Virus record (IMG/VR): IMGVR_UViG_3300045988_073563
Strand: one strand, 5' to 3'
Source of the DNA: a virus
Length of the DNA stretch: 64,000 nt
The notes under the pieces are model-generated. The model worked only from the letters and a program-made list of their open reading frames with translations, was not told the origin of the DNA and ran no database searches. Positions 3,736 to 55,225 of this stretch are shown piece after piece. Each line of letters starts with the position of its first letter. The first letter of the stretch is position 1. Both the position numbers and the translations under genes were made by a program.

Positions 3736-3828
3736 AAAGATATATGTTGGATTATATTTATGAAATATTTCATATAAACAAGAACTTAGATATACTTTTC
3801 CCGTTTCAGTATAAAAAAACTGAACAAT

Positions 3829-4356
3829 ATGTGGAAAGATATTAAAGATTACGAAGGTTTATATGAAATAAATTCATCTGGACATATTAGGAGAAAAGGC
3901 AGTGCAAAGCTGTTAAAACAAGCTAAAGGAAAAGATTATATGCAAGTTAGTTTATGTAAATGCAATCATAAAGTCACTAAAACAGTTCATAGACTAGTAG
4001 CAGAAACTTTCTTAGAAAACCCTAATGAACTACGTTGTGTTAATCATAAAGATGAAAACAAGTTAAATAATAATGTAGAAAACCTTGAGTGGTGCAGCGC
4101 AAAATACAATACTAGTTATGGTGACTGTATACAGAGAAGAGCAAACTCTCATAGAGGGAAGAAACATAGATATTCAGAACATGTTAAATGTAGAAAAATA
4201 ACCCAACAATTTGACAATAATATGAATTTAATAAAAGAATTTAACAGCTTAACAGAAGCATCCAAAAGTACAGGTATTGCTATACAAAATATTTCAGCTT
4301 CTTGTTTAGGTAAAACAAAAGAATCCGGTGGATTCATATGGAGGTATAAGACATGA
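3829..4356 (+). CDS. HNH-family homing endonuclease (NUMOD4-like N-terminus plus HNH_3-like core)
   Basis: The N-terminus WKDIKDYEGLYEINSSGHIRR, then HRLVAETFLENPNELRCVNHKDENKLNNNVENLEW, is typical of phage HNH homing endonucleases. The gene has no TAG codons. Its TGA stop overlaps the next start (ATGA). Confidence 0.75.
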   Translation: MWKDIKDYEGLYEINSSGHIRRKGSAKLLKQAKGKDYMQVSLCKCNHKVTKTVHRLVAETFLENPNELRCVNHKDENKLNNNVENLEWCSAKYNTSYGDCIQRRANSHRGKKHRYSEHVKCRKITQQFDNNMNLIKEFNSLTEASKSTGIAIQNISASCLGKTKESGGFIWRYKT

Positions 4357-4754
4357 AATATTTTTCTATCGCAGAATTAACAAAATCTACTACAGCTACA
4401 GCTAAGAAATTAGATAATACTCCTACAGAGTAGGCAGAGAAGAATCTAATTACTCTAGTAGAAAAGGTACTTGATCCACTTAGAGAATTGTATGGTAAAC
4501 CTATTATAGTTAATTCAGGTTATCGCAGTCCAGAAGTAAATAAAGCAGTTAAAGGAGCTAAGACAAGTCAACATGTATTAGGAGAAGCTGCTGATATAAC
4601 AGCAGGTAGCAAAGAAGAGAATAAGAAGTTATTTGAGTTAATCAGAGATAACTTTGAGTTTGATCAACTTATTAATGAGAATGACTACTCATGGATACAT
4701 GTATCATATAGAGAAGGAAGACTTAGAAAACAAATATTAAAGCTTGGTAAATAA
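4353..4754 (+). CDS. Peptidase M15-type cell-wall hydrolase (endolysin candidate)
   Basis: ATG 4353 to TAA 4752-4754 with one in-frame TAG (4431-4433). It carries Zn-ligand-like motifs SQHVLGEAADI and WIHVS, as in the Peptidase_M15_3 / VanY-like fold. Confidence 0.7.
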
Positions 4755-4756
4755 AG

Positions 4757-7700
4757 ATGGTAAGATTTGTTAATTTTAGAGCAAGTGATATATAGCCCAA
4801 TCCTGATGAAGTAATGTACTGGGTTGACCTTAATACTGATCCACTTGGTGGTAGTATAAAGGTATGGAATGCAGAAGGATATTGGGAGACTATAAAAGTA
4901 CTTCAAGGAACTCTACCTGAATTTGAAAACAGAATAAAGAAGTGGGTAGAACAACAATTAAAGAACTTTGATGAGCATCTGAATGAAGAGATACGTCAAT
5001 TTGACGGTAGGATTGCTATCATAAGTTAGGATATAGAGACATTAAAACTAACTAAATAGGATAAACTTATTGCTGGTTCAGGCATAGATATTACTGATAA
5101 TGTAGTATCATGTGTACTGGATCTTACTCTGTATAAGATAGTATCAGAATTACCCACTGAAGACATTGATACTACAAAGATATACTTAGTAGTTGATAGT
5201 GAAGGTACTCATGGTAATCTCTATAAAGAGTATATCTATGTAGATGGAGAGTGGGAACTATTGGGTGAATATAAAGCAGATATAGACTTATCCCCATATC
5301 TTACTAAGGTAGAAGCTGCTGATACTTATGCTACTAAACTAGAACTGCAACAAGAAGTAAATCGTGCAACACAAGCAGAGGTTACTGAGAAGAATAGAGC
5401 ATTAGCTGCAGAGGAACAACTGTCTAAAGACATTGATGCAGAAAAGGATAGAGCTCTTATTGCAGAAAGAGATAACTTCAACCGTATTATAAATGAAATT
5501 GCACGTGCAGAAGCTGCAGAAAAAGCTAATGCTAAAGCAATAGAAGATGAGGCAAAGCGTGCTATAGAAATTGAAACAGCTCTTGCTTCAGGAATGGTAG
5601 AAGAACAGAACAGAGCAATTGAAGCGGAAGAACAGTTACAAGGTGAAATATGGGCTGTAGATGCTAAAATGTCTGAACAGGGTGGTTCTTTAACTGATGC
5701 TATAAATTCTAATACACAAGCTATAGCTGATGAAACTGCTAGAGCTACTCAAGCTGAAGATAATAATAGGAATCTTATTAATGCAATGGATACAGCTTAT
5801 AAGGCTGCTGATACTGCAACTAACACTAAATTAGACAATGAGATTACTAGAGCTAAAGCAGCTGAGAAAACAAATGCAGATGCTATAGTAGTAGAAGCGG
5901 ATCGTAATGATGCACAAGATACTTTAATCAGCAATCTGCAATCAAGCAAAGTTTCTACTGTTAACTTAGTATAGGATCCTGATAATGAGTTACATTATAC
6001 ATTGATGGTAGACTCTACTAATGCTGGTGAAATAAGCATACCTAAGGATAGATTCTTAAAGCAAGCTTATTACGATCCACAGAAGAAGAGCCTTATTTTT
6101 ATATTTGTAACTGAGGATGGTGAACAAACTGTACCTGTAGATATTAGCGATCTAGTAGATACATATACTGCCGGTAATGGTTTAAGTCTAGCGAATAATA
6201 AGTTTAGCATTACTATTGATAGTACTTCTGATTCTTACTTAACTGTAGGAGCTAATGGCATCAAATTATCTGGTGTAGCAGCAGCTATTAACAAACTAGA
6301 TACTGATTACAAAGCAGCAGATACTGCAACTCTTAACTCAGCTAAAGCATATACAGATACTAAAGCATCTGATATAACCGATACAGTTACACAACTACAA
6401 TCAGATATAGAAGCTGAAGAAATCAGAGCTACAGATGTAGAGAATAGATTAGCAGGACAAATATTTGCATTAGACGCTGCAAAACAAGAAAGATTAGTTA
6501 GTGGTGAAACTATTAAGACTGTCAATGGCAGTTCATTACTAGGAGCTGGCAACATTGTTATTGAAGGTGGCAGTGGTGGAGGAATTGATGATGCTCCGTC
6601 TGATAGTAAAGAATACGTTAGAAAGAATGCAGCATGGTCAGCATTACCTACTAGATCTGTAACTCCAGTTGCTGATTCGTTAGTATAGAGAGACGGTTCA
6701 GGTAATCTGATAATTAATAAAGGCTCCATTAATTTCAACAATAACATGGAATGGTGGATGCAGGTTAATTCTGATGGTAACTTCATACTTAACAGTACTG
6801 GTAATGCAAATAAGTTCTTATATAAAGATTATGAAGTAGGAAATTTAAACAATTTATATGTACTTAGGGAAACTGTGATAGATGCTGGAACTCTAGACGA
6901 AAATACATACTATCCTGTTACTATACGTATGGATAGTAAGTACAACAATAGAATAGAAGTGCATACCACATTGGGAGTATCTAGAAAGCCAAGTTGGTCA
7001 ACACATGAACAAGGATTTTCGGTTCATTTTGTAGAAGAAGTTTATCCTTTAGCTTGGGGAATAAACAGTACTACACATAGAAGAATATTATCTTTTAATT
7101 ATAATTGGACGAAAGATAAAGCAGTATATCCTATAGGTAGGGTAACATAGATGGAAAACGGTGGGTCAGAGGTAATATATGTTAGAGGTGGAGGAAGATA
7201 TTATTTTTATACTACTAAAAATGCTTTACCAGTATTAAGGACCTCTGATTATACAGATAGTAGTCAAACTGTATCTCCTAAAGCAGCTAGTGATATGACA
7301 GATGCTGACTATGCTACTTTTAAAAGAACTATGGTTGAAACTGCTGATACTTCTTATGAACCTACTGCAAATAGTATAGTAAAAAGGAATGCGGACGGTT
7401 ATATAAAAGCTAGTTATATAAACACAACTGCAAGTAGGTAGAATGGATATGCTGATACAATGAGTGATGTATTCTTCATGTCCAATGAAGATGGTTACAT
7501 TCGTCGTTGTTCCAAAGCAAAGTTCAAAGAACAAATATCAGGTACAGGTTTAGATGCAGATACATTAGATGGTCAATAGGATGATGCTTATTTGAGATAC
7601 AGAAGTACTACAACAACACATGATGATAACACACTGTGGGATAAGATAGGTATTAAAGAATATTCTTCAGCTAATCCAGACCAACTAGATACTCCGTTTA

Positions 7701-9613
7701 ATTATGGAGCAGCTATATCATTACCTGCGGGTTCAAGAAGATTTGACATATGGTATTCTGACAGCTCATCGACTAATTCTACTTAGAGGGGAGTATTCTA
7801 TAGAACTGGTTGGAATGTAACTAAAAATCCATGGGTTAGATTTTTAGATGCCAATGATATGAGTGCTACAAATGTAGCAAGCAAGATTCCAGTTAGAGAC
7901 GCTAACAAACAGATACTAACTAGTGGTTATAAGAAAGAAGGATCTAGTGATTCATATGTGTTGCTTGGTGCTGGTGGTCACGTAATGTTAGCAAAAGGAG
8001 CTACTGGAAATACCATTGTGCAAAGAGACAATGATGGAATAGTATATGGTAAGTACTTCTATACAGAACAAGAAGACGAACCTTCTAGTGCTACTATATC
8101 TTCAGTATATATAAAAACAACAGATAAAATTATAAGAAGAGTATCATTCGCTAACTTTAAATCAGCATTAAACATTCCTTCTGCATACACATTACCAACT
8201 GCATCTAGTACTACTTTAGGAGGTATCAAGGTAGGAGCAGGATTATCTATTAGTAATGGAGTGTTATCTGCTAATGGAGGTGGCACAGCTGATTCAGTAG
8301 CGTGGGCAAATGTAACAGGTAAGCCAACATGGATAGGAACTGCTAAACCAACTTATAGATTAGATGAAATAGCATCATCAACTAACCAAACTGTAGATGC
8401 TAGTACTACACCTGTATCTAGAAAGAAAATAGTCTATGTAGGTAAATCAGGTAATGGTTGGATAAGTGCAGTTGCATTAGGTATACGAAATGTAAATGGA
8501 TCATTTGGTCCAGCTGTATTATCATTGGGTACTAAAGATACACCGTCAGATACAGCAGCTATTGATGATGGATGGGTAGATTATCAATTCTAGACTAGTG
8601 GTAGAATTGCATCTAAGGCAGGTACATTTGCTGTTACTTCTGATATTCCTACTTCATTAAAGAACCCTAATGCTATTAAGTTTACAGGAGCAGTTACTGG
8701 TACTTATGATGGTTCATCTGCTGTTACTTTGAATATCCCAACTATTGCCGGACCAAAAGGTGATACTGGTGAGAAGGGAGAAAAAGGTGATTAGGGTCCG
8801 TAGGGTTTGAAAGGTGACACTGGGGATCAAGGACCTAGAGGATATGCTGGTTCAGATGGAGCTAATGGTAAATCGTTAGAGTTTGTATGGAGTGGTTATA
8901 CTCTTGGTGTAAGACAAGAAGGTACTACATCATATACTTATTCAACTAGTTTACGTGGAGCAACTGGAGCGAAGGGTGATAAAGGAGATAAGGGTGATAC
9001 AGGTCCAGCTGGTACTACAACGTGGTCTGGTATTACTGGAAAACCATCATGGATTGGTAGTAGCAAACCAACGTATACATGGTCGGAAATCACAAGTAAG
9101 CCATCATGGATCGGTTCAAGTAAACCTTCCTATTCATATTCAGAAATATCTGGTACTCCATCTCTTGCTGATGTAGCCACATCTGGATTATATAATGATC
9201 TAAGTAATAAACCAGTTATTGATACTGCTCTATCTTCTACTAGTACAAATGCAGTTCAGAACAAAGTAATATATGAATAGTTAGTAAAGAAGGCTGAGAT
9301 AGTAGGATATTAGGCAGGTTAGAATGGTTACATAAAGTTTGACAATGGTTTATTAATGCAATGGGGGTATAAAACAGCAAGTTCTACTGGTACTAATACT
9401 ATTTATACACCTATAGCTTTTTATAATGCTACTTATTGTCCTATTATTACTTATCGTGAACCAGGGTAGGGCATGAACATTGTTATAGGCTTAGTTACAC
9501 TTGTACAAAATAGTTATTTTACAATAAGAAGTAGATACACAGTGGGAGATTCGAATGGTACTGGCGCGGGAATCAATGATTTTTATTGGGTAGCCGTTGG
9601 TAGATGGAAATAA
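4757..9613 (+). CDS. Very long tail fibre (1618 codons) with coiled-coil, collagen-like and tandem-repeat segments
   Basis: Track ORFs 4814, 5261, 6002, 6746, 7151, 7592, 7859 and 8807 all share one frame. I read every gap and found only TAG (16 in total) until TAA 9611-9613. The N-terminal motif is YWVDLNTDPLGGSIKVWNAEGYWETI. Long Ala/Glu-rich heptad-like stretches follow, then Gly-X-Y runs. Confidence 0.75.
8750..9013 (+). repeat. Collagen-like Gly-X-Y tracts inside the fibre gene
   Basis: The tracts read GPKGDTGEKGEKGD(TAG)GP(TAG)GLKGDTGDQGPRGYAGSDGANGK and GATGAKGDKGDKGDTGPAG. The two TAGs occupy X/Y positions next to a CAA-encoded GDQ triplet. Confidence 0.8.
9032..9145 (+). repeat. Tandem 19-aa repeat ITGKPSWIGSSKPTYTWSE / ITSKPSWIGSSKPSYSYSE
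   Basis: Two adjacent copies at 9032-9145. A diverged third copy (VTGKPTWIGTAKPTYRLDE) lies at about 8312-8368. Confidence 0.8.
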
Positions 9614-9626
9614 AAAATTAACTGTT

Positions 9627-10157
9627 ATGAAATATTGGAAATAGGGATTCTATGATGAATTTCAAGAAGGTTCGGTTGAAATAACCGAAGAATATTGGCA
9701 GAAACTATTAGTCGGGTAGTCATCAGGAAAAGAAATAAAAGAAAACGAAGTTGGATATCCCATATTGGTCGATTATCAGTATACTATTGATGAATTAAAA
9801 GAAATGAAAATAGCTGACATTAATGCTTATGATAAATCAGATGCGGTAAATTCATTTTATCTTTCAGGAAAAAAAATGTGGTTAGATAAAGAAGACCGAG
9901 TAGGGCTTGTTAACTCAATTAATATTGAGAAACATACTGGTAAACTAGATACAGTTTTATGGTTTGATACAATAAAATATACTATACCTATAACAGATGC
10001 TATATCTATGCTAAATTCATTAGAGTTATATGCACTTAATTGCTATAATACTACCCAACAACACATTTCGGCAATCTATAAATTACAAACAAAAGAGGAA
10101 ATAGAGTCTTATAACTATAAGACAGGTTATCCAGATAAGCTATAGTTTACATTATAA
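9627..10157 (+). CDS. Tail-fibre assembly / chaperone-like protein (DUF4376-like C-terminus)
   Basis: ATG 9627 to TAA 10155-10157 with 3 in-frame TAG. Its position directly after the fibre gene, together with a C-terminal segment (WFDTIKYTIPITDAISMLNSLELYALNCYN...YNYKTGYP), resembles fibre-assembly domains. Confidence 0.5.
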
Positions 10158-10184: not shown

Positions 10185-10715
10185 ATGAAAGAGAAAATAA
10201 TATTTCTAGCCCAAACGTATGCTCCAAATCCATCGGAGTGTACTTATTGGATTGATTTAAAAGAAGACCCTACAGGGGCTATTATTAAAGTGTGGAATGG
10301 CGCTACATGGAAACCTATTAGTGGAGACACTGAAGTGGTAGCTATGTTACAGGAAGAGATTAAAAAGAAAGCTACTAAGGCTACTACTTTATCTGGTTAT
10401 GGCATTCAAGATGCATATACTAAAGAACAAGTAGATGCAAAAGTAGCATCAGTATATAGAGTAAAAGGATCAGTTGCTGATTTTGATTCATTGCCAAGTA
10501 TTGCATCAATAGGAGATGTGTACAACTTGGATGATACAGGAGCTAATTATGTATGTATTACAGCTAGTCCTGCAGAATGGGATAAATTATCTGAAACTGT
10601 AGATTTAACTAATTGTATTGCATCTGAAGTAGTATCCAATGTAGTTTATCTTACTCAAGCACAATACGAAGCATTATCAGTTAAAGATTCCAAAACATTA
10701 TATTTAATTTACTAA
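10185..10715 (+). CDS. Short fibre-like protein sharing the N-terminal anchor motif of the 4757 fibre
   Basis: NPSECTYWIDLKEDPTGAIIKVWNGATWKPI is paralogous to NPDEVMYWVDLNTDPLGGSIKVWNAEGYWETI at 4796-4890. No TAG; TAA stop. Confidence 0.6.
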   Translation: MKEKIIFLAQTYAPNPSECTYWIDLKEDPTGAIIKVWNGATWKPISGDTEVVAMLQEEIKKKATKATTLSGYGIQDAYTKEQVDAKVASVYRVKGSVADFDSLPSIASIGDVYNLDDTGANYVCITASPAEWDKLSETVDLTNCIASEVVSNVVYLTQAQYEALSVKDSKTLYLIY

Positions 10716-10719: not shown

Positions 10720-11988
10720 ATGAAATTACAGAATAATGACATAATAGCAGCTTATCTAGGTGCTTAGACTATTTCTGATATTAATTTGGGAGATAACAAT
10801 GTCCTCTCTAATTACTATGGAGTTAGCTTTCCATTAGAACCTCAGAATACTCTTATGACTAGAATAGGTTATATGCCTTGGCATAAGTCATTACCTATTC
10901 AATCTAAAATGAAAACATGTACTATTACTTCTGATGGTACTGTTAAATATATCAATGCATCTGATAGAACTAAGTATGAAGATGGAACTGACAGAGATAT
11001 GACGCTTAATACTATGGTAGAAATACCTGAATTCTGGTATAAGTGTATGAAGAATGAAACAGACGTTTTCCTTAACTTGTATGTTAATGATCCTAAACTA
11101 GCAGACGTGGAACATGTAACTAAATTCTATATTTCAGCATATGAGGCTACTACAGTAGATGATAAGTTGATGTCAGTTAATAATGGTTCTACCCCTACAG
11201 TATCTATCCCCAGAACTACTATGCAATCTAGAGCTAGAGCAAATGGTAGTGAGAAATGGAATATGTATACTTATAAGGCACATAGAATCCTTACTATCCT
11301 TTACTTAGTAGAATACGCATGTACTAATAGTCAAGCAACTTACAATGCTACATTAACTTCAGAAGGATATAGACAAGGCGGACTTGGCGCAGGTGTAACT
11401 GGTGCAGGTCAACCAGTTAAGAATGGTTCTAATATATACTCAATTGTTCCATGTGGTACTACAGATTCACTAGGAAATGCTACAGGTGTAGTTTCATTTA
11501 CTTGGAATAATACTAATGCAGAAGGTGCTACTATATCTACATTCAATTATAATGTACCTAGTTATAGAGGCGTTGAGAATCCATTTGGACACTTATGGAA
11601 GAATGTAATAGATGCATTGGTACACTTTAACTCTACTGATAATTGTAATGATGTAATGTTGAATAATAATCTCGCTACATTTGGTTCAACCACAATAGGT
11701 GATTATACGTTACAGGGACAGACATCAATTAGAGAAGGATATAAGAAGCAGTTGATATATAACTCTGCCTTTGATTTATTCCCATCTAAAGACGAAGCAT
11801 TTGGAGGAAATACTACAACGTATTGGTGCGACTATAATTATACTAATAATAGTACGTCAGACAGAACTTTCCTTTTGGGTGGTCACTCGGCTAGCGGCGG
11901 TGGTGCTGGGTTGCTCTATGTGGGTTCTTACGGTGGGCTTGGTGCTTCCTCTGCTTCTGTCGGTACTCGGTTAATCTATATACCGTAA
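10720..11988 (+). CDS. DGR target protein (putative receptor-binding protein with a C-terminal variable region)
   Basis: ATG 10720 to TAA 11986-11988 with one TAG at 10765-10767. The C-terminus ...YWCDYNYTNNSTSDRTFLLGGHSASGGGAGLLYVGSYGGLGASSASVGTRLIYIP contains the VR, in the C-terminal position typical of lectin-fold DGR targets. Confidence 0.85.
11872..11972 (+). repeat. DGR variable region (VR)
   Basis: This 101-bp segment aligns with 12028-12128 at a fixed offset of 156. Of 66 non-adenine TR positions, 65 are identical. Of 35 TR adenines, 30 are substituted in VR (hand alignment). Confidence 0.9.
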
Positions 11989-12027
11989 AAATATAGAATT
12001 TTGTAAAATAATTAGGTTGTTCTCTTG

Positions 12028-12128
12028 CATTTAGGTAGTAACACGACTAACAGCAGTAATGCTAGGTTACTCAATGTGAATTCTAACAATGAGCTTAGTA
12101 ATTCCAATGCTAATGTCAGTACACTGAT
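12028..12128 (+). repeat. DGR template region (TR), non-coding
   Basis: This is the A-rich copy of VR. In the VR frame it reads H L G S N T T N S S N A R L L N V N S N N E L S N S N A N V S T L I. Its AAY and AGY codons cannot mutate to stop codons by A-substitution. Confidence 0.9.
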
Positions 12129-12248
12129 CCCCAAAACAGAAAAAATATTTAAAAAGCACTGTCAGAGAAGACCTTACCTCTTGGTAAAAAACGACATTTT
12201 AAAACACTGTATTAGTAGCGTAAGCGAAAGTTCGGTATGGGATTTCAG

Positions 12249-13271
12249 ATGAAAAGATATAATAATTTATTTGAACAGATTGTTAGCTTAGACAATCTAC
12301 GTCTAGCTGAAAAGAAAGCTAGAAAAAACAAGACTCACAGACCAGAAGTTATTGAGTTCGATAAGAATAAAGAACAACTTCTGTTAGAGTTATAGAAAAT
12401 GTTAATCGAAGGTACATATGTAACATCTCCGTATTATGTCTATAAGATATATGAACCTAAAGAAAGAGAAATCTTTAAGTTACCTTATTATCCAGATAGA
12501 ATAGTACATCATGCTATAATGAATATTATGGAACCTATATGGGTATCAACCTTTGTAAAAGGAACATATAGTTGTATTAAGAAACGTGGTATCCATAAAG
12601 CAATGAAAGATGTTAAAGAATCTTTGAAAGACATATAGGGAACTCAATATTGTCTAAAGTTAGATATTAGAAAGTTCTATCCTTCAATAGACAATGATAT
12701 ACTTAAACAAGTAATAAGAAGGAAGATAAAAGATACTAAGCTATTGAACTTGTTAGATGGTATAATAGATTCTGCGCAAGGAGTTCCTATCGGTAATTAC
12801 TTATCACAATTCTTTGCTAATCTGTATTTAACTTATCTAGATCATTATATTAAAGAAGTTCATAAGATAAAACACTATTTCAGATATGCAGATGATATTG
12901 TAATATTACACAGTGATAAGAAGTATCTTAGATATCTGTATGAAGATATTAAAAGTTATCTAGAGAATCAACTTAATCTAAGGTTCAAAGATAATTGGCA
13001 GATATTTAAAGTAGATTCTAGAGGAATAGATTTTGTAGGTTACAGATTGTTTCATACACATATACTTCTTAGAAAGAGAATCAAACAAAGCTTCTGCAGA
13101 AAGATAACAAAACTAAATAAAAAAGATATTGATAAGGATGATTATAAACAAAAAATATGTAGTTATATAGGTTGGATTAAACATTGTAATGGAAGGAATT
13201 TATTCAGTAAAATGTTGAAATATAAAGAGCTATTAGAATACGTTAACATCCATAGACCAAGTAAAACATAA
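12249..13271 (+). CDS. DGR-type reverse transcriptase (340 codons, 2 in-frame TAG)
   Basis: ATG 12249 to TAA 13269-13271, with TAG at 12393-12395 and 12636-12638. The motifs are [38 protein letters not shown] (the DGR-characteristic I/LGxxxSQ) and RYADDIVIL (YxDD). Confidence 0.9.
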
Positions 13272-17208: not shown

Positions 17209-17327
17209 CATTTATAGCCCCAAGAACAAACGCTATTAGTTCATATGGTCTATTGTATTACTTACTACGTAAAGTGGCTAGAAACGCCTTAAAATACGTT
17301 ATTATTATATTTAATAAATAATGCATT

Positions 17328-17984
17328 ATGAAATTAAACACATTGAATACTATTATTGATGATATTCTACTTGAATTGCGCAACAGTTCTATTGCCGAAT
17401 CAGAACATATAAGTAGAATACAAATCGAGCAATGGATTCACAACTACAGAGCTATGTTAATTAAATAGGACATTGATAAAGGAAGAGATATCAATCCTAT
17501 GTATGTATAGACTCTGCCTTGTATTCATTTAGATCGTGTTGAGTGCACTCCCGGTCATATCGAATATGTAAGTAATATTGAATTACCAAAGCTTATAGAC
17601 TTTCACTTTAGAACTGGATTAGTATCTGTAAAAGATATGTTCGGCAATTTAATCTAGTTAGGAAGTGAAACAAAAAACAAATATCAAAAGTATAGGAAAT
17701 ATACATGCAAAGACTACACAGCATACCTGAAAGGTAATAGAATATATGTAGATGGTGGTAACCATCAGTTAGAATACATTGAGGCAGATGTTATATTAGA
17801 GAATCCAGCTGATGCAAATGAATGCTTTGATCCAGATATGCCTTATCCAGCACCAGCTCATATAATACCAACTATTAAAGATTTAATCTTTAGTAAAGAG
17901 TTAAATATAATGCCAAAAATGCCTACTGATGAGACCAATAATTCTAGAGATGATATGTAGAACATTTATAAACAGCAGAAATGA
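17328..17984 (+). CDS. Conserved-looking virion or hypothetical protein (218 codons, 4 TAG)
   Basis: ATG 17328 to TGA 17982-17984, verified codon by codon. Confidence 0.5.
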
Positions 17985-18430
17985 CACACAGAAAATCTTA
18001 CACAATAAGTGACTTCTATTAGTTCTACTTATCTAATATCGAAAGAGATACTGTATATGATATTGATTATAAAGTGTACAGACAAATAATAGAAGACTAT
18101 TTTAAATTTATAGCAGATTAGGTTATTGAACATAGTAGAGAATTTAAACTACCATGCAGATTAGGTAATCTAAGTATAGTAAAGCGCAGACCTAAGAACT
18201 TTGATAATAAGAGCCTAAGGATTGATTATCATGAAAGTGCCATACAAGGTAAAGCAGTATACTTTATCAATGAACATTCCAATTTTTTTAAATTCAGATT
18301 TTTGTGGTCAAAAAAAGACAGTCTTCTAAAAAATAAAACCAGATATTAGTTTGTTGCCACCAGAGCAAACAAGAGAAGATTAGCACAAATAATAAAAAAT
18401 AGAGAGCATGATTACGTGGAGATTCGCTGA
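17981..18430 (+). CDS. Basic hypothetical protein (149 codons, 3 TAG)
   Basis: ATG 17981 overlaps the previous TGA (ATGA). The gene ends at TGA 18428-18430. Confidence 0.45.
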
Positions 18431-19163
18431 TGTTAACAAATTACCTGAGGAATCTGGTATTTATATGATATTGAATATATTAAACAATCATAAATACGTA
18501 GGTAGCACCAATAACTTTAAGAGAAGACTAACCAGACATCGCGGAGAATTACGTAAGGATAAACATCATTCCACTTACTTGTAGAGGGCGTATAATAAAT
18601 ATGGTGAAGACAAATTCATAATATATATACTAGAGAGATGTTAGCCTATAAAAGATACTTTGATATATTTAGAGTAGAAGTATTTGGATTTAAATCCAGA
18701 ATATAATATCGAGAAAGTAGCAGATAGAAGATTTACTAAATAGGCAAAGATAAAAACAAATAAGGTAAAGCATCCAATACAACAATATAGTTTAGACGGT
18801 AATTTTATCAGAGAATTTGACAGTATAACACAGGCAGCCAAATGGTGTGGAAATAAAAACAAACACCCTCAAATATCTTTGTGTTGTTAGGGTAAATTGA
18901 TCCAAGCGTGCGGGTATCTATGGAAATATAAGAATGATGATAGAAGCATTATGCAAGTAACAAAACAACCTTGTGATAAAGGAATAAAAGTTGATCAATT
19001 AGACATAAACGGGAACTATATTAAAACTTATGATAATATGAGAATAGCTGCAGAATCAAATGGATCAATACAAAATAGATCTGCTATAAATAGAGTATGT
19101 AGAGGATAGAAGAAAACAGCTTTTGGGTATAAGTGGAGATACCATACAAATAATATATTATGA
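18408..19163 (+). CDS. GIY-YIG homing endonuclease with NUMOD/IENR-like DNA-binding repeats (6 in-frame TAG)
   Basis: The catalytic region reads SGIYMILNILNNHKYVGSTNNFKRRLTRHRGELRKDKHHSTYL(TAG)RAYNKYGEDKF. C-terminal repeats are YSLDGNFIREFDSITQAAKWCG and LDINGNYIKTYDNMRIAAESNG. The gene ends at TGA 19161-19163. Confidence 0.8.
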
Positions 19164-20071
19164 TAGACAATAATATGATATCATCTAAAGCAGTTATAGC
19201 CAAAATAATTGCTGATTTAGATTTAAAAGAAGATGAAGTTAAAATAACCGATATAAGAGAATATATTGGTGAGGCTATGGAAAAGATAGGTGCTATATAG
19301 CAACTAGAACATAAAGTAGAAAATATTCCTGTAATAGGTTACTAGGCAAAGTTGCCATGTGATCTATACAGATTAAATTAGGTAGCATTTTCATTTGATA
19401 ATAGTTGTGGTTGGTTACCCATGAGAAAGGTTACCAACTCTTTTGGTGTTTATACCAAATGTGATAAATGTGATCCTAATATGATAATAGGTGATAATGC
19501 TCTTATACCTTTAGTAAAGAATCTATATAACCTTATAGATGATAGATCTGCATTAGATATCATTAACTCCGATCCTAATGTTAAAAAGACATTAAGTGCT
19601 TTAGTAAACCAATATACTATACCTAGTGTAAATGGTAGACTTATAGTAGGTAATCCTGCATCATTAAATGGATCATTGCAATACTCTACTAAACCGGGTT
19701 ATATTACAGTAAATGTTCCTTGTGGTTGGGTTAAGATATCTTATCATGCCATCATTACTGATGAAGATAGTATGCCTATGATACCAGATAATCCTTCTTA
19801 TTTCGAAGCCATATTTTGGTATGTAGCTATGAAGTTATCTTATCCTAAGTACCTAAAAGGACAACTGAATCAAAACATATACTATGATATGAAGAACTCA
19901 TGGAACTTCTATCGTAGACAGGCTTACGCAGAAGCTATGATGCCGGGTGTAGATGAAATAGAATCTATCAAGAATGATTGGCATAAGTTATATACAGAGT
20001 TTGATGATCATGATACGTTCTTTGCTACTACTGGAGATGAACAAATAATATATAATTAGAATAGATTATGA
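19160..20071 (+). CDS. Virion or hypothetical protein (303 codons, 4 TAG)
   Basis: ATG 19160 overlaps the previous stop. It is in frame with track ORF 19421 and ends at TGA 20069-20071. Confidence 0.5.
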
Positions 20072-25812: not shown

Positions 25813-27600
25813 ATGGCAGCAAATATGTACGATCAAGCCGCATAGGCTTAGTTTATTAATACTTATGCTCCAATTAATTTTGGAGAATTGTTTAGAATTG
25901 GTGCAGCGCAGAAAGAAGAAATGGATAGAGCTGCTCAACAATTTGGAGCATAGTTACAGAAATTTGGAGAATTTAGATCACCATCTGCAGTAGATACTCA
26001 AAGTTATTATAATCTTACTACTGGTAGACAGGATATACAGGATGCTATAAATCAAATGGTATCTAACCCAGATGCTTTGAAAGATGCTTCTTTTAGGTCT
26101 AGTTTACAATCATTAATAAATAATATAGATTATTCTTCATTAAGTTTGCTTAAAGAAAGTGCAGATAACCTAAGACTTGGATTACAAACAAGATCTAAAA
26201 TGATGGCTGAAGGAAGGTATAATAAAGAATGGGATGATTCTGACATACCTAACTATAATACATTAGATAAAAGAAGAGTGTTTGATGATATTACTCCTGT
26301 AGCATTTATGAATGCAAATGAGTTGAGTACTCCATACTTTAATGATTTAAAACGAGGATTCTTAGGTACTAAATACATTAATGGAACTAGATATATAGTT
26401 AGTGGTAATAACATGGATGACTTGTATTAGGTTGCATCAGCTAAGTTTAATGACCTTATAGACACTCCTCAGGGTAGAAAATATTATGAAAGTTTTATTA
26501 GAAGAAATGGAGGAGATGTAGAAGCGGCTAAAAGTCAATTTGTTGATATGATAGCATAGTCACAAATTGATAGAACTATTAGACCAGACTATGAAGTAGA
26601 TCCGTCATACATACAAGAGTTGAAAAATGCAGGAAGAGGCGGTTCGGGTAGTACAGTTCCTCAAGGTTTACCAGATTTAACCACCATAGTAGAATCTACT
26701 ACCAATAGAAATATGCTAGCTAAATTTGGAGGATTGTCGGCAGAAGAAAGAGAATAGATTAGAAATGGTAGTATAACTCCAGATGTAATAGAAAAAGCAA
26801 TGCAGAATATGACTGTCAATGTTGATAAAATATTTAATTCTGCAAAAGGTATGCCAAGACAGAAATCCAAAACAGTATTAGATAATATACAGAGTCCTTT
26901 ATCTCCAAATGCTGGTGAAATATTCTTGTCAGAAGGAGGGGAAGGCACTATGAATAAGGGATTTAAAGTATCCAATGAAACAGGTAATATGGTGCTCGGG
27001 GATGATTTTGTTACTGGAATAATTGGGTATGATATGGGTGCTCCACAGTATATTAAACAAGCACTACTCGATCCGGCTGCAAAGAAAGGAAGTAAAAGTG
27101 CAAATACATTTGAAAAATCTCTAATTAACAATGTAAGATTTCAAGAAGCTTGGTATAGTAATAAGTTTAGAGATGTTATTATAAAAGATGCAGGAAGTAC
27201 TGTAGGAGATATAGCTGATATTTATCATAGAAGAAAAGTTTATGTATCTATGAAAGATCTACGCAATATTGGAATGAATATAGAAAATGTAGCATCAATT
27301 GGTAAAGTAGTACCATTCGGAGATATATCTGATTAGGAAGAAATTACAATTAAACAAGAATATGATCCAGAAACTGGTGAAGTGTTAAGCGGTACTACAG
27401 AAAAAGGTTTGAAAAGAAAAAAAATAGACAAATCTGACTTATACGTTGAAGTTGAAGGTCTATATCCTATAGAGACTGGCAGTAGTGAAGCTACAGTTAG
27501 TAGAAATGCGATATATGAAGATAAAGTAAGAAAATTAGGTTCTAAAGAAAGATACCAACAGGCTGTAGAGTCTGCATATAAATACCTTGGTTACAATTGA
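25813..27600 (+). CDS. Virion/cargo protein (595 codons)
   Basis: ATG 25813 is in frame with ORFs 26056, 26800 and 27382 and ends at TGA 27598-27600. Confidence 0.5.
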
Positions 27601-27601
27601 T

Positions 27602-30600
27602 ATGGAAGATAACAGATTAAGATTAGGAGCTCGTAAATTAACTAGTTCTACATTTAATGTAAGAGACAGTGTAACTACTAATGATGGAGCGTCAGATAGA
27701 AAGTAGAAAGCTGCAGAATATAACCAGTATGTTCAAGAAAAGGGGTATACCGATCTTTACAATAAAGATGCAGTTAAATATCAGTATCAGCAGCAAGAAG
27801 AAACTAAAGATAAGGATACTTCTTGGTGGAATAAGGGCGCAAGATTTATGAGTATTGCTGCCAATCCTGTGTTAGGTTCATTGGCTAATAATATACAAGA
27901 TTTGTATAGAACCCCGTTAATACAATCTACTATAGAAAAAGCTGTAGAAACCAATATAAGTTCTCTGAAAGGTAATATAATAAAAAACGAAGTAAAGAAT
28001 CTAAATGATTTTGCCTTTGTTAAAGATTATGAAACCAGAAGACAACAAGCTTATGAATTAGCTAAGTAGGGAGATGAGGAAGGAGCTCAAAAAATATGGG
28101 ACACACTATCATAGGATTTCGCTAAATTTGATTAGATAACTAAATCAAATAAAGATCTTATATCTATGTACTACAAAGTTCCTAAAGTTGGAGGAGCTAC
28201 GTATAGTGAAAAAAAATATCGCGGTATCAACTTATTAGGTGAATTAACAGATAGATCCTTAGCTCTTACCAATAGTAATATTAGATTGGCTGAAAAAGCG
28301 GAAGCTCCAAAAGACGTAACTTCAGTTAATGTAAGCAATATTCCTTTATGGAATAGATTTACTATAGCTTTAGACAATATTTTATCTTTTAATAATAGTG
28401 CAGAAGAAATAAGCGAATATGTTAATAAAGGATATGGTGATGCTGTGAATTTTGTTAGAAATGAAGAAGTATCTAATAATCCAGATAGAAGTGGCATAAT
28501 AGCTAAACTTAATCAGTTAGAAGAAGATAATAATACCAGTCATAATGTAAAAACTCAAAAACTTAGAGATAAACAAGAAACCTTACGTAATGGTAGTTGG
28601 TTCTTTGATCCTGATGCTATTGACCCAGTATTTAGAGAAAAAGTAAATAATAACGAGTTTCAATGGACTGAACCAAGATCTTACTTATATGCTCTTCCAC
28701 AAATAGGATCATCAATGGGAGAGTTTGCTACTACTATAGAAACTGCTACTCTTGGTAGATTAGCTGGATTAACAGCTAAAGCATTAGGTAAAAGAGGTAT
28801 TCCATATGCTTCAGCTGCAGTTACTTTGACTGAAGCTGCTATCAATGCTGGGAATCAGTACTATCAAAGAACATAGGAAACAAATGCTGAAATCTTTGAC
28901 TCATATCTATCTAACTTGGTTGGTTAGATGGAAAAAGGAGATATTAATCCAGAAACCATATTAACCAAAGGAGCTTAGGGGTTAGAAGCTAGGGGAATAA
29001 ATGTACAAGAATTAACTGTTCCACAGATATTAGAGGAAATGTTAGTGTACAATATCAATACAGATGACCCTAGTTTTGAGAAAGCCAAGTATGATGCTTA
29101 CTTAGGATTGCGTGATGTAGAACAATCTAATATGGCGTTAGGTCTATGGGATTTAATGGATATGGGCTTGTATTCTTATGGAGGCAAACTGGCAATAAAG
29201 TCTGCAAAAGAAGGTTTTAAAGACGTAGCTAAAGGAATTTCTAAAGCAACTGGAGTAACAAAAGCCTTAAACTTAGGAGGTAAGTTTATAGATAATAGAA
29301 TAAATAAAGCTCTTTATACCATAGCTGGAAAAGATGTTTTCAAAGCTAATAAGTATAAAGACTTATTTAATACTATGGGCAAAATGAGCGGTAAACTAGG
29401 TATAACAGCTTTTTCAGAAGGAACTGAAGAAGGTCAGCAGTATCTTATACAAAAAGATTATCAGTTATAGAATTCATATAATAGCGGAGAATTAACTTTA
29501 ATAGATGCTTTTTTAAAGAATTTTAAATACGGTGCTGAAGCCAACTTAGCTCTTATGGGGTTACATCCAGACGATGCTTTAAATAATGATAAAGAACTTG
29601 AGCAGAACATGAAAATTGGAGCTTTAATAGGCTTAGTAATGGGAGGTCCTGCTACAGCTATTTCTGACGGATACCAAATGATACGTAATGTGAAGTCAAA
29701 TAACATGCTTCGCAATATGGCTGCATATGATATATCTAACAGAGAAAACGATGTTAAGGTAGATAGATGGTTTGATGCAGTAAAGAAAGGGTATACAGAT
29801 GATATATTGAATAATCTAGTAGATATAAAAGATAGATTTACTCCGGAAGGTCTTACACAAGAAGATATAGATGAAGATATAGTTAAAGCAAAAACTATAG
29901 AATCTATTTATTATAATCCATCCGTTAATACTAATCTAGAAGATTTAAATATAAATAGAGGATCTGATAAACATAAAATTTTCGTTAAAAATGCGATTAA
30001 AGCATATGATAATGAGAGAATATACAATGAAAAAACAAAAGAGGCAGACGCTAATTTGTAGAATTTACTAAAGATTAATGATGAAGAAAATGCAACTGCA
30101 TTTAATTCTAATGTAGATGAATACTGGAATGGGTTAACAGAAGAGCAAAAGTTATCTTGGAACAATAGTAAAGACGAACTGGTAGCAGCTATAAAGAAGG
30201 TTAGAAACCTGACTGCCACTTAGACTGTATATAGTAGGTTGAGAAGGTAGTTAAAGGATATGGACAAATTTGTTAGTGAAGCTAAAAAGAATGGTTTAGA
30301 TGTAACTAATGAGAATATAGCAGCTATAGCTTCTTACATAAATAAAATTTCTAAATCTTTAGAAAAAGAGGTAAAGAATATTCCTAATGCCAAAGCTATG
30401 GTAGATATATTTGGTTTATCTACCAATAAAGAAATAGATCAAGCTATTGCAGATAAGGCTATACTTACTGGTTTGTTACATAAAGCTGTTAATAGAAGAT
30501 CTGCATATTAGAATGGTATTGTGGTAAAAGATAATCAGAACAGGCAGATAGATTTTAATATCAGAAATTGGAATCAACTTACTCCAGAAGAGCAACAAAC

Positions 30601-33600
30601 TATAATAGATAAGTAGACTAGTGAAGCAGAGCAGAATGGGAAAGATGCTCCATCGTTAGCTAGTATTATAGCTAGATATAATTAGAACGTACAACTGCAG
30701 ATAAAAATTCAGGGTGAAACTGTAAGAGCTGCTAGGGATTATGCTAATGAGATAATTAAAGCAGATATGGACAGATATGAACAAAATGATAGGTCATATA
30801 CTGAACAAGATGTAGCTTTAAATGCAGAAGTAGAGAATGCCCTTAACTAGGATACTGAACAAGATACATCAGAAGTTGATTTTACTCCTACTGGTAATGC
30901 TGACAGTTCTTCTCCTTTACAAGGCACAGATATTAGTGTAAAGACAAAAGAGAAGAGAAAAGACAAAGACATCTATACTCAAACAGATGAAGATAAATTA
31001 ACTAAAGCTAAAGAAGAAGTAGATACAGAAGAATTAGATGTAACTGATTTAGTTTCAACTGAGGATGCTCCAGACATTAGTGATGAACAGGAATCTATTA
31101 GGGAAAGAGCAATCAGGGAAGTAGAAAATCCATCTGAAAAAAAACCCAAAGACGATACTCAAGATAAAATTACAGAAGAAAATATAATGGATGCCAAGAA
31201 CTGGGCAGATCCTGAAGATGATTTAGGTCTAACCAGAGATGATAATCCTGATATTGAAAGAGATCTTACTTAGATTGAAGATCTTACTCCAAAGGAATTA
31301 GACGCCAAAATACAAGAAGCAGAATCTACAGATAGTCGTAGTGACAATCCGTAGGCTGGAGATTTCTTTGTTTCTAATGATGGTAAAATGTTTCTTAACG
31401 GGGTGGAGATTACAGATGAACAATTAGCCAAAGAAAATTCGTACGATGAGTATGCAAATGATCCAGAACACACATTATCTGAAAAAGCTAATAAACTAGC
31501 AAAAGAAGGTGAAAAAGTTCCCGGGTTATCTACATCTGAAACTATACGAAATAATTGGTTAGTTGGTAGAACTTTATTCTATAGACCTGACGCTACACAA
31601 CCTATGTAGCTTCCATTTAAAGTAAAAGGAGCTAAAAAAATACACAGTGGCAAAGAACTTGGAGAGGCTATGGGTAAACCGGGATTCTTAGATGGTGCTA
31701 AATTGTATTTAGTGCCCGGTCCTACGTTCGATAAATCAGAAACATAGTTTGATCCTAATGATCCTAGAACCTATGAGAATGCAGCTGTATATGTTATAAT
31801 TGACAAAGACGGAGATATATACGCTGCAGCATATAGAAGTCAGAAAAAGGCTACTTTAGATTATCAACGTAGATTGGGGGCTGAAAACATTGGTCCCGGT
31901 ACTAAAGCTAATGAAGATCTTGAAGTACTAAGGGAACAGAAACAAAAAGTAGTTAGAGCCTATCTGCAGCAATGTCCAAAAGATAAGAACGGAAAATATG
32001 TATTACCAGATGAAGCCCTAACCCATGTAGTGCCTACTCAAGTAAATGTATCTAATGGGGTGTTTAATAATCAGAAAGACGGTAACAAGCCTAAATTGAG
32101 GAAACTGTCAGAATGTAAGACATTTGAGATTCCTCATAATCCATTAGACATATTCACAGAATGTACATTTGGATATGGAACCGGTGGAATGAGTGATGCA
32201 AACCCATACTTTATTAAACATATGGGTAATGATGAAGCACTATATACTAGTGGTGGTTTCTCTGGTAAAATAGTAATAGTACCTAAACCATCTGCCACTC
32301 CTAGAGGTAGATATTCTTTGCCTATATATTTGAGTGAAAAGTTCTTTAGAGATGATAAAGTAACTAAACCATCGCAGATAGTATTAAAGAGTCATGATGA
32401 AAATGGAAACCCAGCATCAGATAGACACTATACTAATTTTATGGAATATGTTTTAGATCTTATTACAGACGGAGACCCATATGGAGTACTGCCATTGATA
32501 GTAAATCAAGGAGCTAAAACTAGATTATCTTCAAAGAAACAAGAAGCTGCTCAATATCTTGCAAAGAAACAATTAGGATTTGATCCAGATACTAACAGAT
32601 TCTATATAGCATTACCAAATAGTCAAAGAGGTGGTTTGTATTTTAGAACAGAAATACCATTAGAACAAATAAAGACAGAGCCTAATGTCAGAAAGATGGT
32701 CATATGGTTTATGATGCAAAACTTCCACTGGAACACTGATAAAAATGTATTAACCAGTTCGCTTCCAGAACAGCTTAGAGATTTGGCTATACGTTTGAAT
32801 CCAAAAAATGATAAGATAGTACTATTCCCCGGAGAACTGGAATTTACGTTACAACAACTAGGTATTTCTAGAGTGGATGGTAAACTTGTAAAAGATAAAG
32901 TTGCCCCTCCTGCTATGGCTTGGACTATTGACAGTGGCAAGTTACTTACAGATATGGGTGATTATGCATTTAAAGATGGGTTTATATACATAGAAGATAT
33001 AACTACAGATCAAACTGAAACTGCTGTAAGTGCGTCTACGTATCCTATAAGTAAAAAATCCTCTAAACAAGAGGAAACAAAAGAGATCAAAGAAAAAGGT
33101 ACTAAGTTTTTTGGAAAGAAACAACTTAGAGACGTATTGTAGAAGTATAGACAACAAGTAGATAGCACTTAGGTTGAAGATTGGGGTATAGAGCAAATAG
33201 CAGAATTTGAAGAATATCTTGGTAAACATATCAGTACAAACAGAATGGAGGAGAACGGTAATACCATTACCAAATCTACATTTGAAAGAGGAAGTATCGT
33301 ACATGTTACTAACAAGTAGTCAGATTATATAACCCAATTCTTTGATAATTCAGATAATCCTATAGGAGAACCGATGGTAAATCTATCTATGAACTCTAAG
33401 TTGGCAATGGACTTATTAAAGAAAGATAGTAATGGATTTTTAAGTTTATCTGATGAATCTATCCGTAAGATATTCACATATAATGCTACTGAAGAAACAG
33501 GAACTAGAGAAACAGAAGTAAAGCCTGTTGCTAAGGTTAATAGAAGAGCTAAAGCTCAAGAATTAGCTAGAACTATAAAACCATCAGATGCAAATGCTCC

Positions 33601-41365: not shown

Positions 41366-41367
41366 TT

Positions 41368-46094: not shown

Positions 46095-46565
46095 TTATTC
46101 TAGAATAGGATCTTCTAATACATCACCTACAGGAATAATCTCTTTAATTTCGTGAAAATTATTAGTAAATATAATATCACCTATATTACTATCAATTCCA
46201 CTGAATAGATTCCAAATAGTCTTATAATCAGAATTAGTAAGTCCAGCAGGACCGTTACTAATAATATTATCATATCTATGTTTAATTTCATTAGGAAGTG
46301 TAAACACAGCTATTTCATACCAAACATCGTTTATACGAATTTGTCTTAGACTATGAAAGAATTTGTTCTTTTTTAACTCGAACTCTAGATTTAATAAATC
46401 TGCAACTGTATTTTCTTTATACATTATGAATACATGATTATCAAAATATGGTTCATCAGGATATTCTGTATATACATTTATAAAGTTCTTGTTAATTAGT
46501 TTTTTGTTATCTACAATTAACTGCAGTAGACATGCAGATGCTTCATTCAAGTTCTTCAGTTCCAT
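46095..46565 (-). CDS. Hypothetical protein
   Basis: Intact 156-aa ORF with a TAA stop. Confidence 0.5.
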   Translation of the reverse strand: MELKNLNEASACLLQLIVDNKKLINKNFINVYTEYPDEPYFDNHVFIMYKENTVADLLNLEFELKKNKFFHSLRQIRINDVWYEIAVFTLPNEIKHRYDNIISNGPAGLTNSDYKTIWNLFSGIDSNIGDIIFTNNFHEIKEIIPVGDVLEDPILE

Positions 46566-48428: not shown

Positions 48429-48479
48429 ACTGTAGAAATTTAGTAAGTTTATAAATAAGTATTGAATAAAATAGTATCA

Positions 48480-49319: not shown

Positions 49320-49331
49320 AACTGTAATTTT

Positions 49332-49724
49332 TTATGTTTTTAACTTGTTGACCAATTCATCAACTTGTTTTTGCGTATGTACTATATAATAATCTATATC
49401 TAGATTATTTATATACAAATAATACTTAAAAAGTTTTTCACGCAAAGCCCATGCATCATTTGGATAGCCTTTGCATTCAATAATAAACTTATCACCTACA
49501 AAATCAGGTTTATAAGTTATTGCTCTATATTTCTTATCACCAAAAGTAAAAGCTGGAAGCAGTTCGTATCGTTGAGTTTCATACTCAGCTTTGATATTCG
49601 ACTCTTCCAGCTTCTTATATGTATATGTCTCAAGTTTGCTTTTAAACTTAATACCATTATACTCATTTGGTGTTGCGTTACGAATTTTACTTTCGCTAGG
49701 TTTATTTCTTTTCCTCTACATCAT
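49332..49724 (-). CDS. DUF1064-like PD-(D/E)XK nuclease / Holliday-junction-resolvase-like protein, starting ATG-ATG-TAG
   Basis: Not in the ORF track. The - strand frame from ATG 49724 reads M M (TAG) RKRNKPSESKIRNATPNEYNGIKFKSKLETYTYKKLEE...ITYKPDFVGDKFIIECKGYPND... to TAA 49332-49334. There is no ATG, GTG or TTG near the 5' end downstream of the TAG at 49716-49718. Confidence 0.55.
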
Positions 49725-49853
49725 TAGTAATATTAGATTTTCTGGAAATAGTTTTCCTTTTATGTCCAAAGGTAATGAAAAAATTACTATTTACTAATTT
49801 AAATGGAAAAGCTAATATATTCCACAATCCTTTAGAAACATAATTAAAGATAT

Positions 49854-51394: not shown

Positions 51395-51409
51395 ACGATA
51401 TATTGTTAG

Positions 51410-52277: not shown

Positions 52278-52298
52278 AACTATTTGTTTTGTGTTTTT

Positions 52299-55218: not shown

Positions 55219-55225
55219 GCCTCTG

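Follow-up and report, generated by a model that had tools for sequence, protein, structure and literature searches.

Variable and template repeats

The stretch analyzed here, IMG/VR virus record IMGVR_UViG_3300045988_073563, covers 64,000 nucleotides (nt) of viral DNA (hereafter the window), and its positions 10720–13271 carry a diversity-generating retroelement (DGR). The layout is that of a DGR lacking avd, with a target gene ending in a variable repeat (VR), a template repeat (TR), a spacer RNA and a reverse transcriptase (RT) gene following one another in the late tail-fiber region. The main features are as follows.

10720–11988 (+): DGR target gene, 422 amino acids (aa), assigned as a tail-fiber distal or receptor-binding module, with one TAG read as Gln
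11872–11966 (+): VR, receiving TR information and encoding 'LLGGHSASGGGAGLLYVGSYGGLGASSASVGT', with hypervariable positions at 11884–11957
12028–12122 (+): TR, non-coding, with 33 adenines, 10 AAY codons being truly randomized
12249–13271 (+): DGR RT gene, 340 aa, with TAGs at 12393 and 12636 read as Gln and the motifs IGNYLSQ and YADD

Over 11872–11972 and 12028–12128 the two repeats aligned without gaps at a constant offset of 156. VR was changed at 30 of the 35 TR adenines (A>G 18, A>T 8, A>C 4) and unchanged at 65 of the 66 non-adenine positions, the sole exception being T12125/G11969 near the 3' end; the chance of at least 30 of the 31 mismatches falling on the 35 adenines was 2.2e-19 (Fisher). 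The core at 11872–11961 showed no mismatch to TR at its 59 non-adenine positions. A sequence-only reading of the same DNA had given this alignment and these counts by hand, and a recount by script returned identical figures. It had also held that adenine mutagenesis of TR cannot create stops, and enumeration of all A>N outcomes of the TR codons in the VR frame (seven AAT, three AAC, four AGT, one AGC, one AGG, one GAG, two TTA, together with CAT, ACG and ACT) yielded zero stop codons; ten AAY codons alone permit about 6e11 variants. The gaps it described agreed with the coordinates, the target stop ending at 11988, 39 nt before TR, and 120 nt (12129–12248) lying between TR and the RT start.

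A search of both strands of the 64 kb with adenines masked gave no second, remote VR, the best other match having 28 mismatches over 59 non-adenine positions. Since no other TR-like stretch was present in the 64 kb, the element has a single target. A mechanically called 75-aa open reading frame (ORF) at 12025–12252 might have been a hidden accessory gene, but indels of 1, 2, 5, 7 and 8 nt in relatives, none a multiple of three, spoke against it, and it was rejected.

Variation among relatives and extent of the copied tract

The heterogeneity confined to VR that the sequence-only reading had proposed as a check on activity was sought among assembled relatives. The target falls in a 90%-identity cluster of 2469 distinct member sequences, and in an alignment of 11 members with the window protein nearly all differences fell on a fixed set of sites in VR. 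A close set was then defined, consisting of the window and 11 IMG/VR genomes with target proteins 93–97% identical (n = 12). In this set TR was nearly invariant, and VR varied at 24 of the 35 TR-adenine positions, single sites showing as many as four bases, so that variation among the 12 genomes was concentrated on TR-adenine sites.

A further 13 non-adenine VR positions varied, most of them matching an identical change in the TR of the same genome. Eight non-adenine TR substitutions in L007 and L008 were all mirrored in their own VRs, as was the one non-adenine TR substitution of L006, and in L009 and L012 an A12100 to T change in TR was accompanied by T in their own VRs, giving at least three independent TR changes mirrored in the VR of the same genome. 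A constant TR, a VR hypervariable at the adenines of AAY codons and non-adenine TR changes recurring in the VR of the same genome together show that information flows from TR to VR. Among target-anchored relatives, down to 31% protein identity, 25 of 25 had a VR and a downstream TR, at offsets of 144–186 nt. Mutagenic retrohoming is thus evidently ongoing in the lineage, as judged indirectly from sequence variation at the population level.

The same comparisons bounded the copied tract. In four independent lineages (L039, L036, L077, L096), TR changes at the equivalents of 12120 and 12121 recurred in VR, and an A to G change at 12123 was unmirrored, so the transferred tract ends at 12121–12122. 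The last 6 nt of the repeat span initially delimited (VR 11967–11972, TR 12123–12128) fall outside the copied tract. In a separate observation, the VR of L045, just before the target stop, looked shortened at its 3' end relative to its own TR ('...GGCTATGCTACTCGGTTAATC'), which may be a deletion formed during homing.

Phage assignment and probable TAG recoding

Proteins of the window include crAss hallmarks, with matches to Pfam CrAss_Ring_1 (E = 2e-115) and CrAss_Ring_2 (E = 2e-77), and its replication genes shared 80–86% identity with the RefSeq crAss-like phages cr56_1, cr109_1, cr52_1 and cr113_1. The DGR region shared 74–76% nucleotide identity with cr60_1 and cr52_1 (Crassvirales; Suoliviridae; Loutivirinae; Buchavirus). 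On the CrAss_Ring genes, the giant 4611-aa ORF described below and nucleotide identity, with terL and the major capsid protein gene outside the window, the DNA is assigned to a TAG-recoded crAss-like gut phage whose nearest relatives are in Suoliviridae/Buchavirus. The window represents 64 kb of a genome of roughly 97–101 kb, and near-identical counterparts occurred only in IMG/VR and other metagenome assemblies (e.g., IMGVR_UViG_3300045988_040416, 97.6 kb).

Neither the RT gene nor the target gene is intact unless in-frame TAG is a sense codon. TAG occurs at 10765–10767 in the target and twice in the RT, at 12393 and 12636; the standard code breaks the RT into three ORFs (52, 79 and 175 aa) and makes the target start late, and with TAG as Gln the RT has 340 aa and the target 422 aa. 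Across the whole window, ORFs of 100 aa or more summed to 17,512 codons with TAG as a stop and to 26,371 codons with TAG as sense, the latter including a 4611-aa ORF at 27530–41365 (+) with 48 TAGs; on the same strand, 30 TAGs were counted in 41362–46035 and 16 in the fiber gene at 4751–9613. In-frame TAGs were abundant on the + strand (1–46035), where all late and structural genes carry them, and almost lacking in the replication genes of the - strand (46095–64000). When six genes were aligned with relatives, TAG stood most commonly opposite CAG (18 cases) and in 3 cases opposite CAA, and RT codon 10, CAG in the window, is TAG in close relatives. The relative cr60_1 encodes a tRNA with anticodon CTA, annotated as tRNA-Gln, just upstream of terL.

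This suggests that TAG is read as Gln in the late genes (genetic code 15), by a tRNA(CUA) known here from cr60_1. As both the RT and the target carry TAG, they would be translatable only with a TAG-reading tRNA(CUA) present, a dependence that would restrict mutagenesis to late infection. The description of the DGR as complete needs a corresponding qualification, as it is complete only under TAG-to-Gln recoding.

Reverse transcriptase and the accessory protein Avd

The RT matched Pfam RVT_1 and phrog_1423 (E = 1.4e-126). Its best match among solved structures was 8ub7_A, a 328-aa chain deposited as 'Reverse transcriptase' (E = 3.4e-51, covering residues 2–322 of 340), and the next PDB matches were group II-intron-like and retron-type RTs at about 1e-17. 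The IGNYLSQ and YADD motifs, both noted at the outset, are present and align with IGSLTSQ and YMDD of 8ub7, the former fitting the motif [LIV]GxxxSQ. NCBIfam holds no DGR RT model, and the RT matched its group II, retron and defense-associated RT (DRT) models far below cut-offs. The GxxxSQ motif and a match to 8ub7 far stronger than to group II-intron-like or retron-type RTs point to a DGR-type enzyme. An alternative RT start, the in-frame ATG upstream at 12237, was rejected as absent in relatives, which all start MKRYNNLF.

As first reported, no Avd-like ORF was recognizable: the Avd family had no match in seven neighboring proteins or in 27 window ORFs of 120–420 aa (ORFs <120 aa and the last ~2 kb being unscanned). 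DGRs of 'lineage 3' and of crAss-like phages typically lack Avd (PMC7290462).

Target protein and fiber neighborhood

The target matched phrog_5302, 'tail protein' (E = 1.4e-74), and its homologues in cr60_1 and cr52_1 are annotated in RefSeq as 'similar to sulfatase, major tropism determinant'. VR codes for residues 385–416 of the 422. Searches by sequence against PDB chains and Pfam, with the single sequence and with a profile, gave zero matches. A first model of the target, built from 73 close homologues (>=68% identity), was useless, with a predicted local distance difference test score (pLDDT) of 32. With 45 representatives, about 35–45% identical, AlphaFold (AF2) gave a model with pLDDT 93 and a predicted template modeling score (pTM) of 0.92. 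Foldseek comparison of this model with PDB placed TaqVP (5vf4) first (E = 9e-9), followed by five Mtd entries (1yu0–1yu4; E 3e-3 to 6e-2), with TvpA further down. TaqVP and Mtd are thus the best structural matches of the predicted target though without a match at sequence level, sequence identity being only 10–14% and TM-scores 0.27–0.47. Among predicted viral structures, the best matches were crAss-like phage proteins and many 'tail collar fiber' proteins. The target is accordingly predicted to carry the DGR variable-protein fold (C-type-lectin-type) with VR at its C-terminal end, in agreement with the C-type-lectin-like C-terminus that had been proposed for modeling.

The target lies behind several fiber genes, of which the following were delimited.

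4751–9613 (+): 1620-aa collagen-like, coiled-coil fiber, matching several PHROG tail-fiber families
9528–10157: DUF4376/tail-fiber-like gene
10185–10715 (+): 176-aa fiber adaptor or anchor protein, with its stop 4 nt before the target start codon

A truncated 982-aa tail protein is also encoded upstream of the target, and a probable lysis cassette lies downstream of the RT. Residues 152–176 of the adaptor matched Pfam Phage_tail_C (PF24243; E = 3.8e-12), and residues 7–61 shared 41% identity with the N-terminus of the large fiber (E = 3e-11), bearing out the placement of the target directly behind a short fiber-anchor gene inside a fiber cluster. The ~55-residue N-terminal domain common to adaptor and large fiber is probably an attachment domain, and the target lacks it. 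A gene occupies the same position directly upstream of the target in cr60_1 and cr52_1. Among ~1500 representative homologues, the ~400-aa target module mostly formed the C-terminus of proteins of 500–1600 aa, so that the fiber seems to be split here into adaptor and tip, the module being fused to the C-terminus of a long fiber in other phages.

Homing-endonuclease-type genes were observed elsewhere in the structural region. One (HNH/NUMOD4, 3778–4356) lies just before a Peptidase_M15 gene (4350–4754), and another (GIY-YIG/NUMOD1, 18396–19163) lies between the genes for crAss tail ring protein 2 (17322–17984) and ring protein 1 (19154–20071), with one 152-aa ORF (17972–18430) between it and the ring protein 2 gene.

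VR flank, spacer RNA and proposed mechanism

Two features adjoin the 3' end of VR.

11967–11972 (+): VR 'TCGGTT' against TR 'ACTGAT', a divergence resembling that between an initiation of mutagenic homing (IMH) element and its TR counterpart (IMH*), outside the copied tract
11975–11997 (no strand): inverted repeat TCTATAT (11975–11981)/ATATAGA (11991–11997) with a 9-nt loop holding the target stop, a candidate hairpin or cruciform

The three differences from TR at 11967–11972 were fixed in 12 of 12 close genomes, VR staying constant where TR changes. The inverted repeat begins 2 nt downstream of this divergent flank. Relatives keep it in the same position; the cr52 lineage shows one compensatory change (ATCTATAT/ATATAGAT to ACCTATAT/ATATAGGT), and the L077 lineage has a different 5-bp stem at the same offset. 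A hairpin or cruciform beside VR is needed for efficient retrohoming in phage BPP-1 (PMC3240598), and by analogy the inverted repeat may serve retrohoming here.

Folding of the spacer, suggested earlier as a search for the RNA element that primes cDNA synthesis, returned a covarying structured RNA, to which a priming role can be given by analogy. Its elements are listed below.

12020–12025 (+): UUCUCU, 5' arm of a helix bracketing TR, pairing with 12164–12169
12124–12131 (+): CUGA-UCCC, TR-proximal arm of a candidate template:primer duplex, pairing with 12239–12248
12164–12191 (+): AGAGAA (12164–12169), 3' arm of the bracketing helix, then the hairpin UUACC-UCUU-GGUAA (12174–12187) and an A-run (12188–12191)
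12170–12252 (+): structured 3' part of the spacer, resembling Rfam RT-17, with a GNRA-capped stem at 12206–12236
12239–12249 (+): GGGA-uu-UCAG, distal arm and candidate priming strand, with the invariant A12249 as candidate priming adenosine

The structure was tested on 18 distinct upstream regions drawn from 77 RT-anchored relatives. Overall, 96% of cells were paired, against 35–45% with partners slid, and changes on both sides were seen in 11 of 24 pairs; as the helices were partly derived from the same 18 sequences, these controls overstate support somewhat. In the TR-bracketing helix all six pairs had changed on both sides with 96% of cells paired, helices 1 and 3 were 96–100% paired, and helices 4 and 5 covaried. 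The TR-proximal duplex, found by RNAalifold, gave RNAduplex energies of -9 to -12 kcal/mol in 18 of 18 regions, against -5.0 +/- 2.6 in shuffles, and its arms covaried by lineage (UCCC/GGGA, AACCC/GGGUU, AAUCC/GGAUU, AAAUAC/GUAUUU). The duplex starts 2 nt past the last transferred base and is followed by A12249, the first base of the RT AUG in this lineage; its downstream arm covers the 10 nt before that AUG. This overlap is specific to the lineage, the RT start of the L077 lineage being 14 nt further downstream, and 'CAGA' was invariant in all 18 representatives, that lineage included.

A cmscan search matched Rfam RT-17 (RF03020) at 12170–12252 over the full length of the model (34.6 bits, E = 3.6e-5), below the gathering threshold of 40.4, and the homologous RNA of the relative L041 reached 40.8 bits. 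RT-1 to RT-19 are motifs found beside RT genes, RT-10 being the BPP-1 spacer; a service to DGRs was also surmised for others by their authors (Weinberg et al. 2017, PMC5737381). In the cryo-EM structure of the BPP-1 complex, a template:primer duplex between TR and the spacer (Sp) lies against the base copied first and has the priming adenosine at its end (preprint 10.1101/2023.10.23.563531), and A12249 may be the priming adenosine here by analogy with Sp A56.

In the mechanism proposed, a transcript of ~12016–12252 would fold so that 12124–12131, just 3' of TR, pairs with 12239–12248, an arrangement in which the invariant A12249 adjoins the base copied first (about C12122) and cDNA synthesis is self-primed. 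A second helix (12020–12025 with 12164–12169), with the stem-loop and A-run, would bracket TR and limit the length of the cDNA. The RT would misincorporate opposite TR adenines, and the cDNA would take the place of VR, with the VR-specific 3' flank and the inverted repeat (11975–11997) as guides. Virions with differing fiber tips would result, and the phage could track variable host surface receptors. The steps past TR-to-VR transfer are modeled on BPP-1.

Context of adenine mutagenesis and adenine-depleted TRs

Across 59 unique VRs, adenines of AAY codons were truly randomized, and isolated TR adenines before G (in AGY, AGG and GAG) appeared as G in 95% of 376 cases. The isolated adenines that are nearly always G, in AGY, AGG, GAG and TTA codons, lie in the TR of the window at 12037, 12052, 12064, 12069, 12092, 12097 and 12118. 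A synonymous TTA-to-TTG site was G in 33 of 36, and TR codes Ser, Arg or Glu where every VR has a scaffold Gly. Dislocation (slippage) as an explanation for AG to GG was rejected, as isolated A before C also becomes G and not C.

In three of the 77 relatives (L038, L054 and L057) the TR slot was adenine-depleted, with an A fraction of 0.15, 0.01 and 0.03, respectively, against 0.33–0.38 in the rest. These slots, about 100–200 nt upstream of the RT start at 2501, were G-rich and unlike their own VR, with insertions of 2 or 3 nt in two of them, and in L038 conversion was limited to the 3' ~70 nt. In the depleted slots, which are non-coding, isolated adenines had become G in 23 of 23 cases, and AA adenines had become G in 33, C in 17 and T in 5 and remained A in 2 (p = 8e-5). 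This looks like mutagenised cDNA having homed into TR and burned the element out or, alternatively, like an assembly artifact or chimera. The counts hint at a context-dependent RT error spectrum, favored over selection alone, and could themselves reflect an assembly artifact; context dependence of BPP-1 DGR RT errors was recently reported (preprint 10.64898/2026.06.12.731847).

The RNA and adenine observations can be joined in one rather improbable reading, in which the RT initiation region is the priming strand, so that a transcript is either mRNA or cDNA template, and isolated TR adenines are copied mostly as G with only AA randomized. If so, AGY, ACN and TTA in TR could stand for 'soft-fixed' scaffold positions of Gly, Ala and Leu.

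Alternative explanations

Taken together, the locus is very probably a functional or very recently functional DGR acting on the tip of a tail fiber. Several points weigh against this. No tRNA gene, including a TAG suppressor, was found in the 64-kb window, and the VR 3' flank has no GC-rich 14-bp IMH of the BPP-1 type. Activity was judged on assembled relatives, between genomes and not within one sample. At some 10 isolated TR adenines (in AGY, AGG, GAG, TTA, CAT and ACA codons) all close VRs agreed on a single base, in seven cases G, and these adenines are in practice unrandomized. The template:primer duplex and priming adenosine are assigned by covariation and analogy only, and the structure 8ub7, taken here to be the bRT of BPP-1, is labeled only 'Reverse transcriptase' in its entry. 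Finally, no Avd was found among the ORFs scanned although BPP-1 bRT requires it to position the template:primer duplex (preprint 10.1101/2023.10.23.563531). The first of these points, with the RT split into 52, 79 and 175 aa under the standard code, would suit a relic in which the VR/TR pattern records past activity and the RT is a pseudogene broken by two stops. TAG, however, runs throughout the + strand late genes and is nearly absent from - strand genes, the window TAGs mostly stand opposite CAG or CAA in relatives, the RefSeq relatives carry the same recoded RT and target (cr60_1 having the tRNA(CUA)), and VRs differ between genomes 93–97% identical in the target protein while TR stays constant. 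A relic is accordingly a very remote prospect.

An active DGR might instead not be self-sufficient as a cassette and need an unrecognized phage or host accessory factor, encoded elsewhere, in place of Avd. The dependence of BPP-1 bRT on Avd for placing its template:primer duplex speaks for this, as does the fact that the scanned ORFs without an Avd match come from a window covering 64 kb of ~97–101 kb. Such a factor is nevertheless somewhat unlikely, as the avd-less order target-TR-RT is the rule for 'lineage 3' and alpha crAss-like DGRs (PMC7290462), TR lies directly downstream of VR in 25 of 25 target-anchored relatives, and an A-rich linker stands 3' of TR where BPP-1 has its Avd-binding stem-loop. 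Host-range switching through the diversified protein is a plausible consequence of the DGR reading. A substantial minority possibility is that the protein is no host-range determinant and adapts to phase-variable capsules of one host, or to mucus or glycan binding: the target, at 422 aa, stands alone as a module apart from the large collagen-like fiber, and the crAss literature frames DGRs as a response to variable Bacteroides surfaces (PMC12386605). Its place in the tail-fiber cluster directly behind the fiber adaptor, and fold relatives that are tail fiber or tail collar fiber proteins and Mtd, favor a role in host range, but neither separates host switching from tracking the variable surface of one host.

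Comparison with known systems

No phages are more abundant in the human gut than the crAss-like ones, and their means of keeping up with the variable surfaces of Bacteroidales hosts are a practical question, for which the locus offers a clean example with strong support at the population level. The picture of what DGRs are stays unchanged, and its value is that of a well-characterized reference case. What it adds is the explicit placement of a compact Avd-less, TAG-recoded DGR on a stand-alone fiber-tip protein in a Suoliviridae-like lineage, a covariation-supported RNA model for an Avd-less DGR that maps onto the Bordetella cryo-EM elements and suggests a likely role for Rfam RT-17, and a 3' limit of information transfer fixed within 2 nt. 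With an RT and about 240 nt of RNA, it is also a possible minimal DGR for engineering.

The locus resembles that of BPP-1 in its adenine-specific mismatches, in a VR at the C-terminal end of a tail-fiber protein with the DGR variable-protein fold (predicted here), in an RT aligning along its whole length with 8ub7 (taken to be bRT), GxxxSQ motif included, in a structured RNA between TR and RT with a duplex just 3' of TR whose strand ends in a conserved adenosine, and in an inverted repeat just downstream of VR. It differs in that no avd was found and an A-rich linker replaces the Avd-binding stem-loop after TR, and in that TR comes directly after VR, 39 nt past the stop; a GC-rich IMH is lacking, the 9-nt loop of the AT-rich inverted repeat contains the stop codon, and the RT and target are TAG-recoded. 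BPP-1 is a temperate Bordetella phage, whereas the present DGR resides in a lytic crAss-like podovirus-type phage. As for Rfam RT-17, the segment at 12170–12252, covering the 3' two-thirds of the spacer, aligns with it from end to end (a GCC/GGC-type hairpin followed by A's, the UAGUAG...CGAAA stem and the 3' CAGA); the published motif has no assigned role, whereas here it lies between TR and a DGR RT, as RT-10 does in BPP-1.

The closest counterparts are those of the Buchavirus phages cr60_1 (NC_055891) and cr52_1 (NC_055888), which share the gene order adaptor, target, TR, RT and lysis genes, about 74–76% nucleotide identity over target and RT, a TR offset of 149 or 154, and TAG in both genes. 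Their genes are annotated 'tail protein; similar to ... major tropism determinant' and 'Reverse transcriptase'; they are other species, with a target protein about 69% identical. A literature search found no paper describing the Suoliviridae cassettes as DGRs.

In 2020, DGRs of alpha-group crAss-like phages were described with the same avd-less target-VR-TR-RT layout, 'lineage 3' of Wu et al. (PMC7290462). Those of the crAssphage LMMB/alpha group (Intestiviridae) share the order target-VR(IMH)-TR(IMH*)-RT without avd, a tail-collar-fiber-type target and a position at the end of the structural cluster; they belong to another crAss family, IMH equals IMH* there and is divergent here, and recoding is apparently not discussed (PMC7290462). 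DGRs were later described in epsilon and zeta crAss-like groups, with amber codons in seven zeta RT genes (PMC12386605). The zeta DGRs are alike in amber-interrupted RT genes needing suppression, in C-type lectin tail fiber targets and, for most, in having no Avd, and their RTs are similar to Suoliviridae RTs according to the authors; their genomes are about twice as large, their targets are others, and two members have Avd and several TRs (PMC12386605). Cassettes of this type are known from related crAss-like phages, where they are already annotated, and the locus is a well-documented example of them and not a new kind of system.

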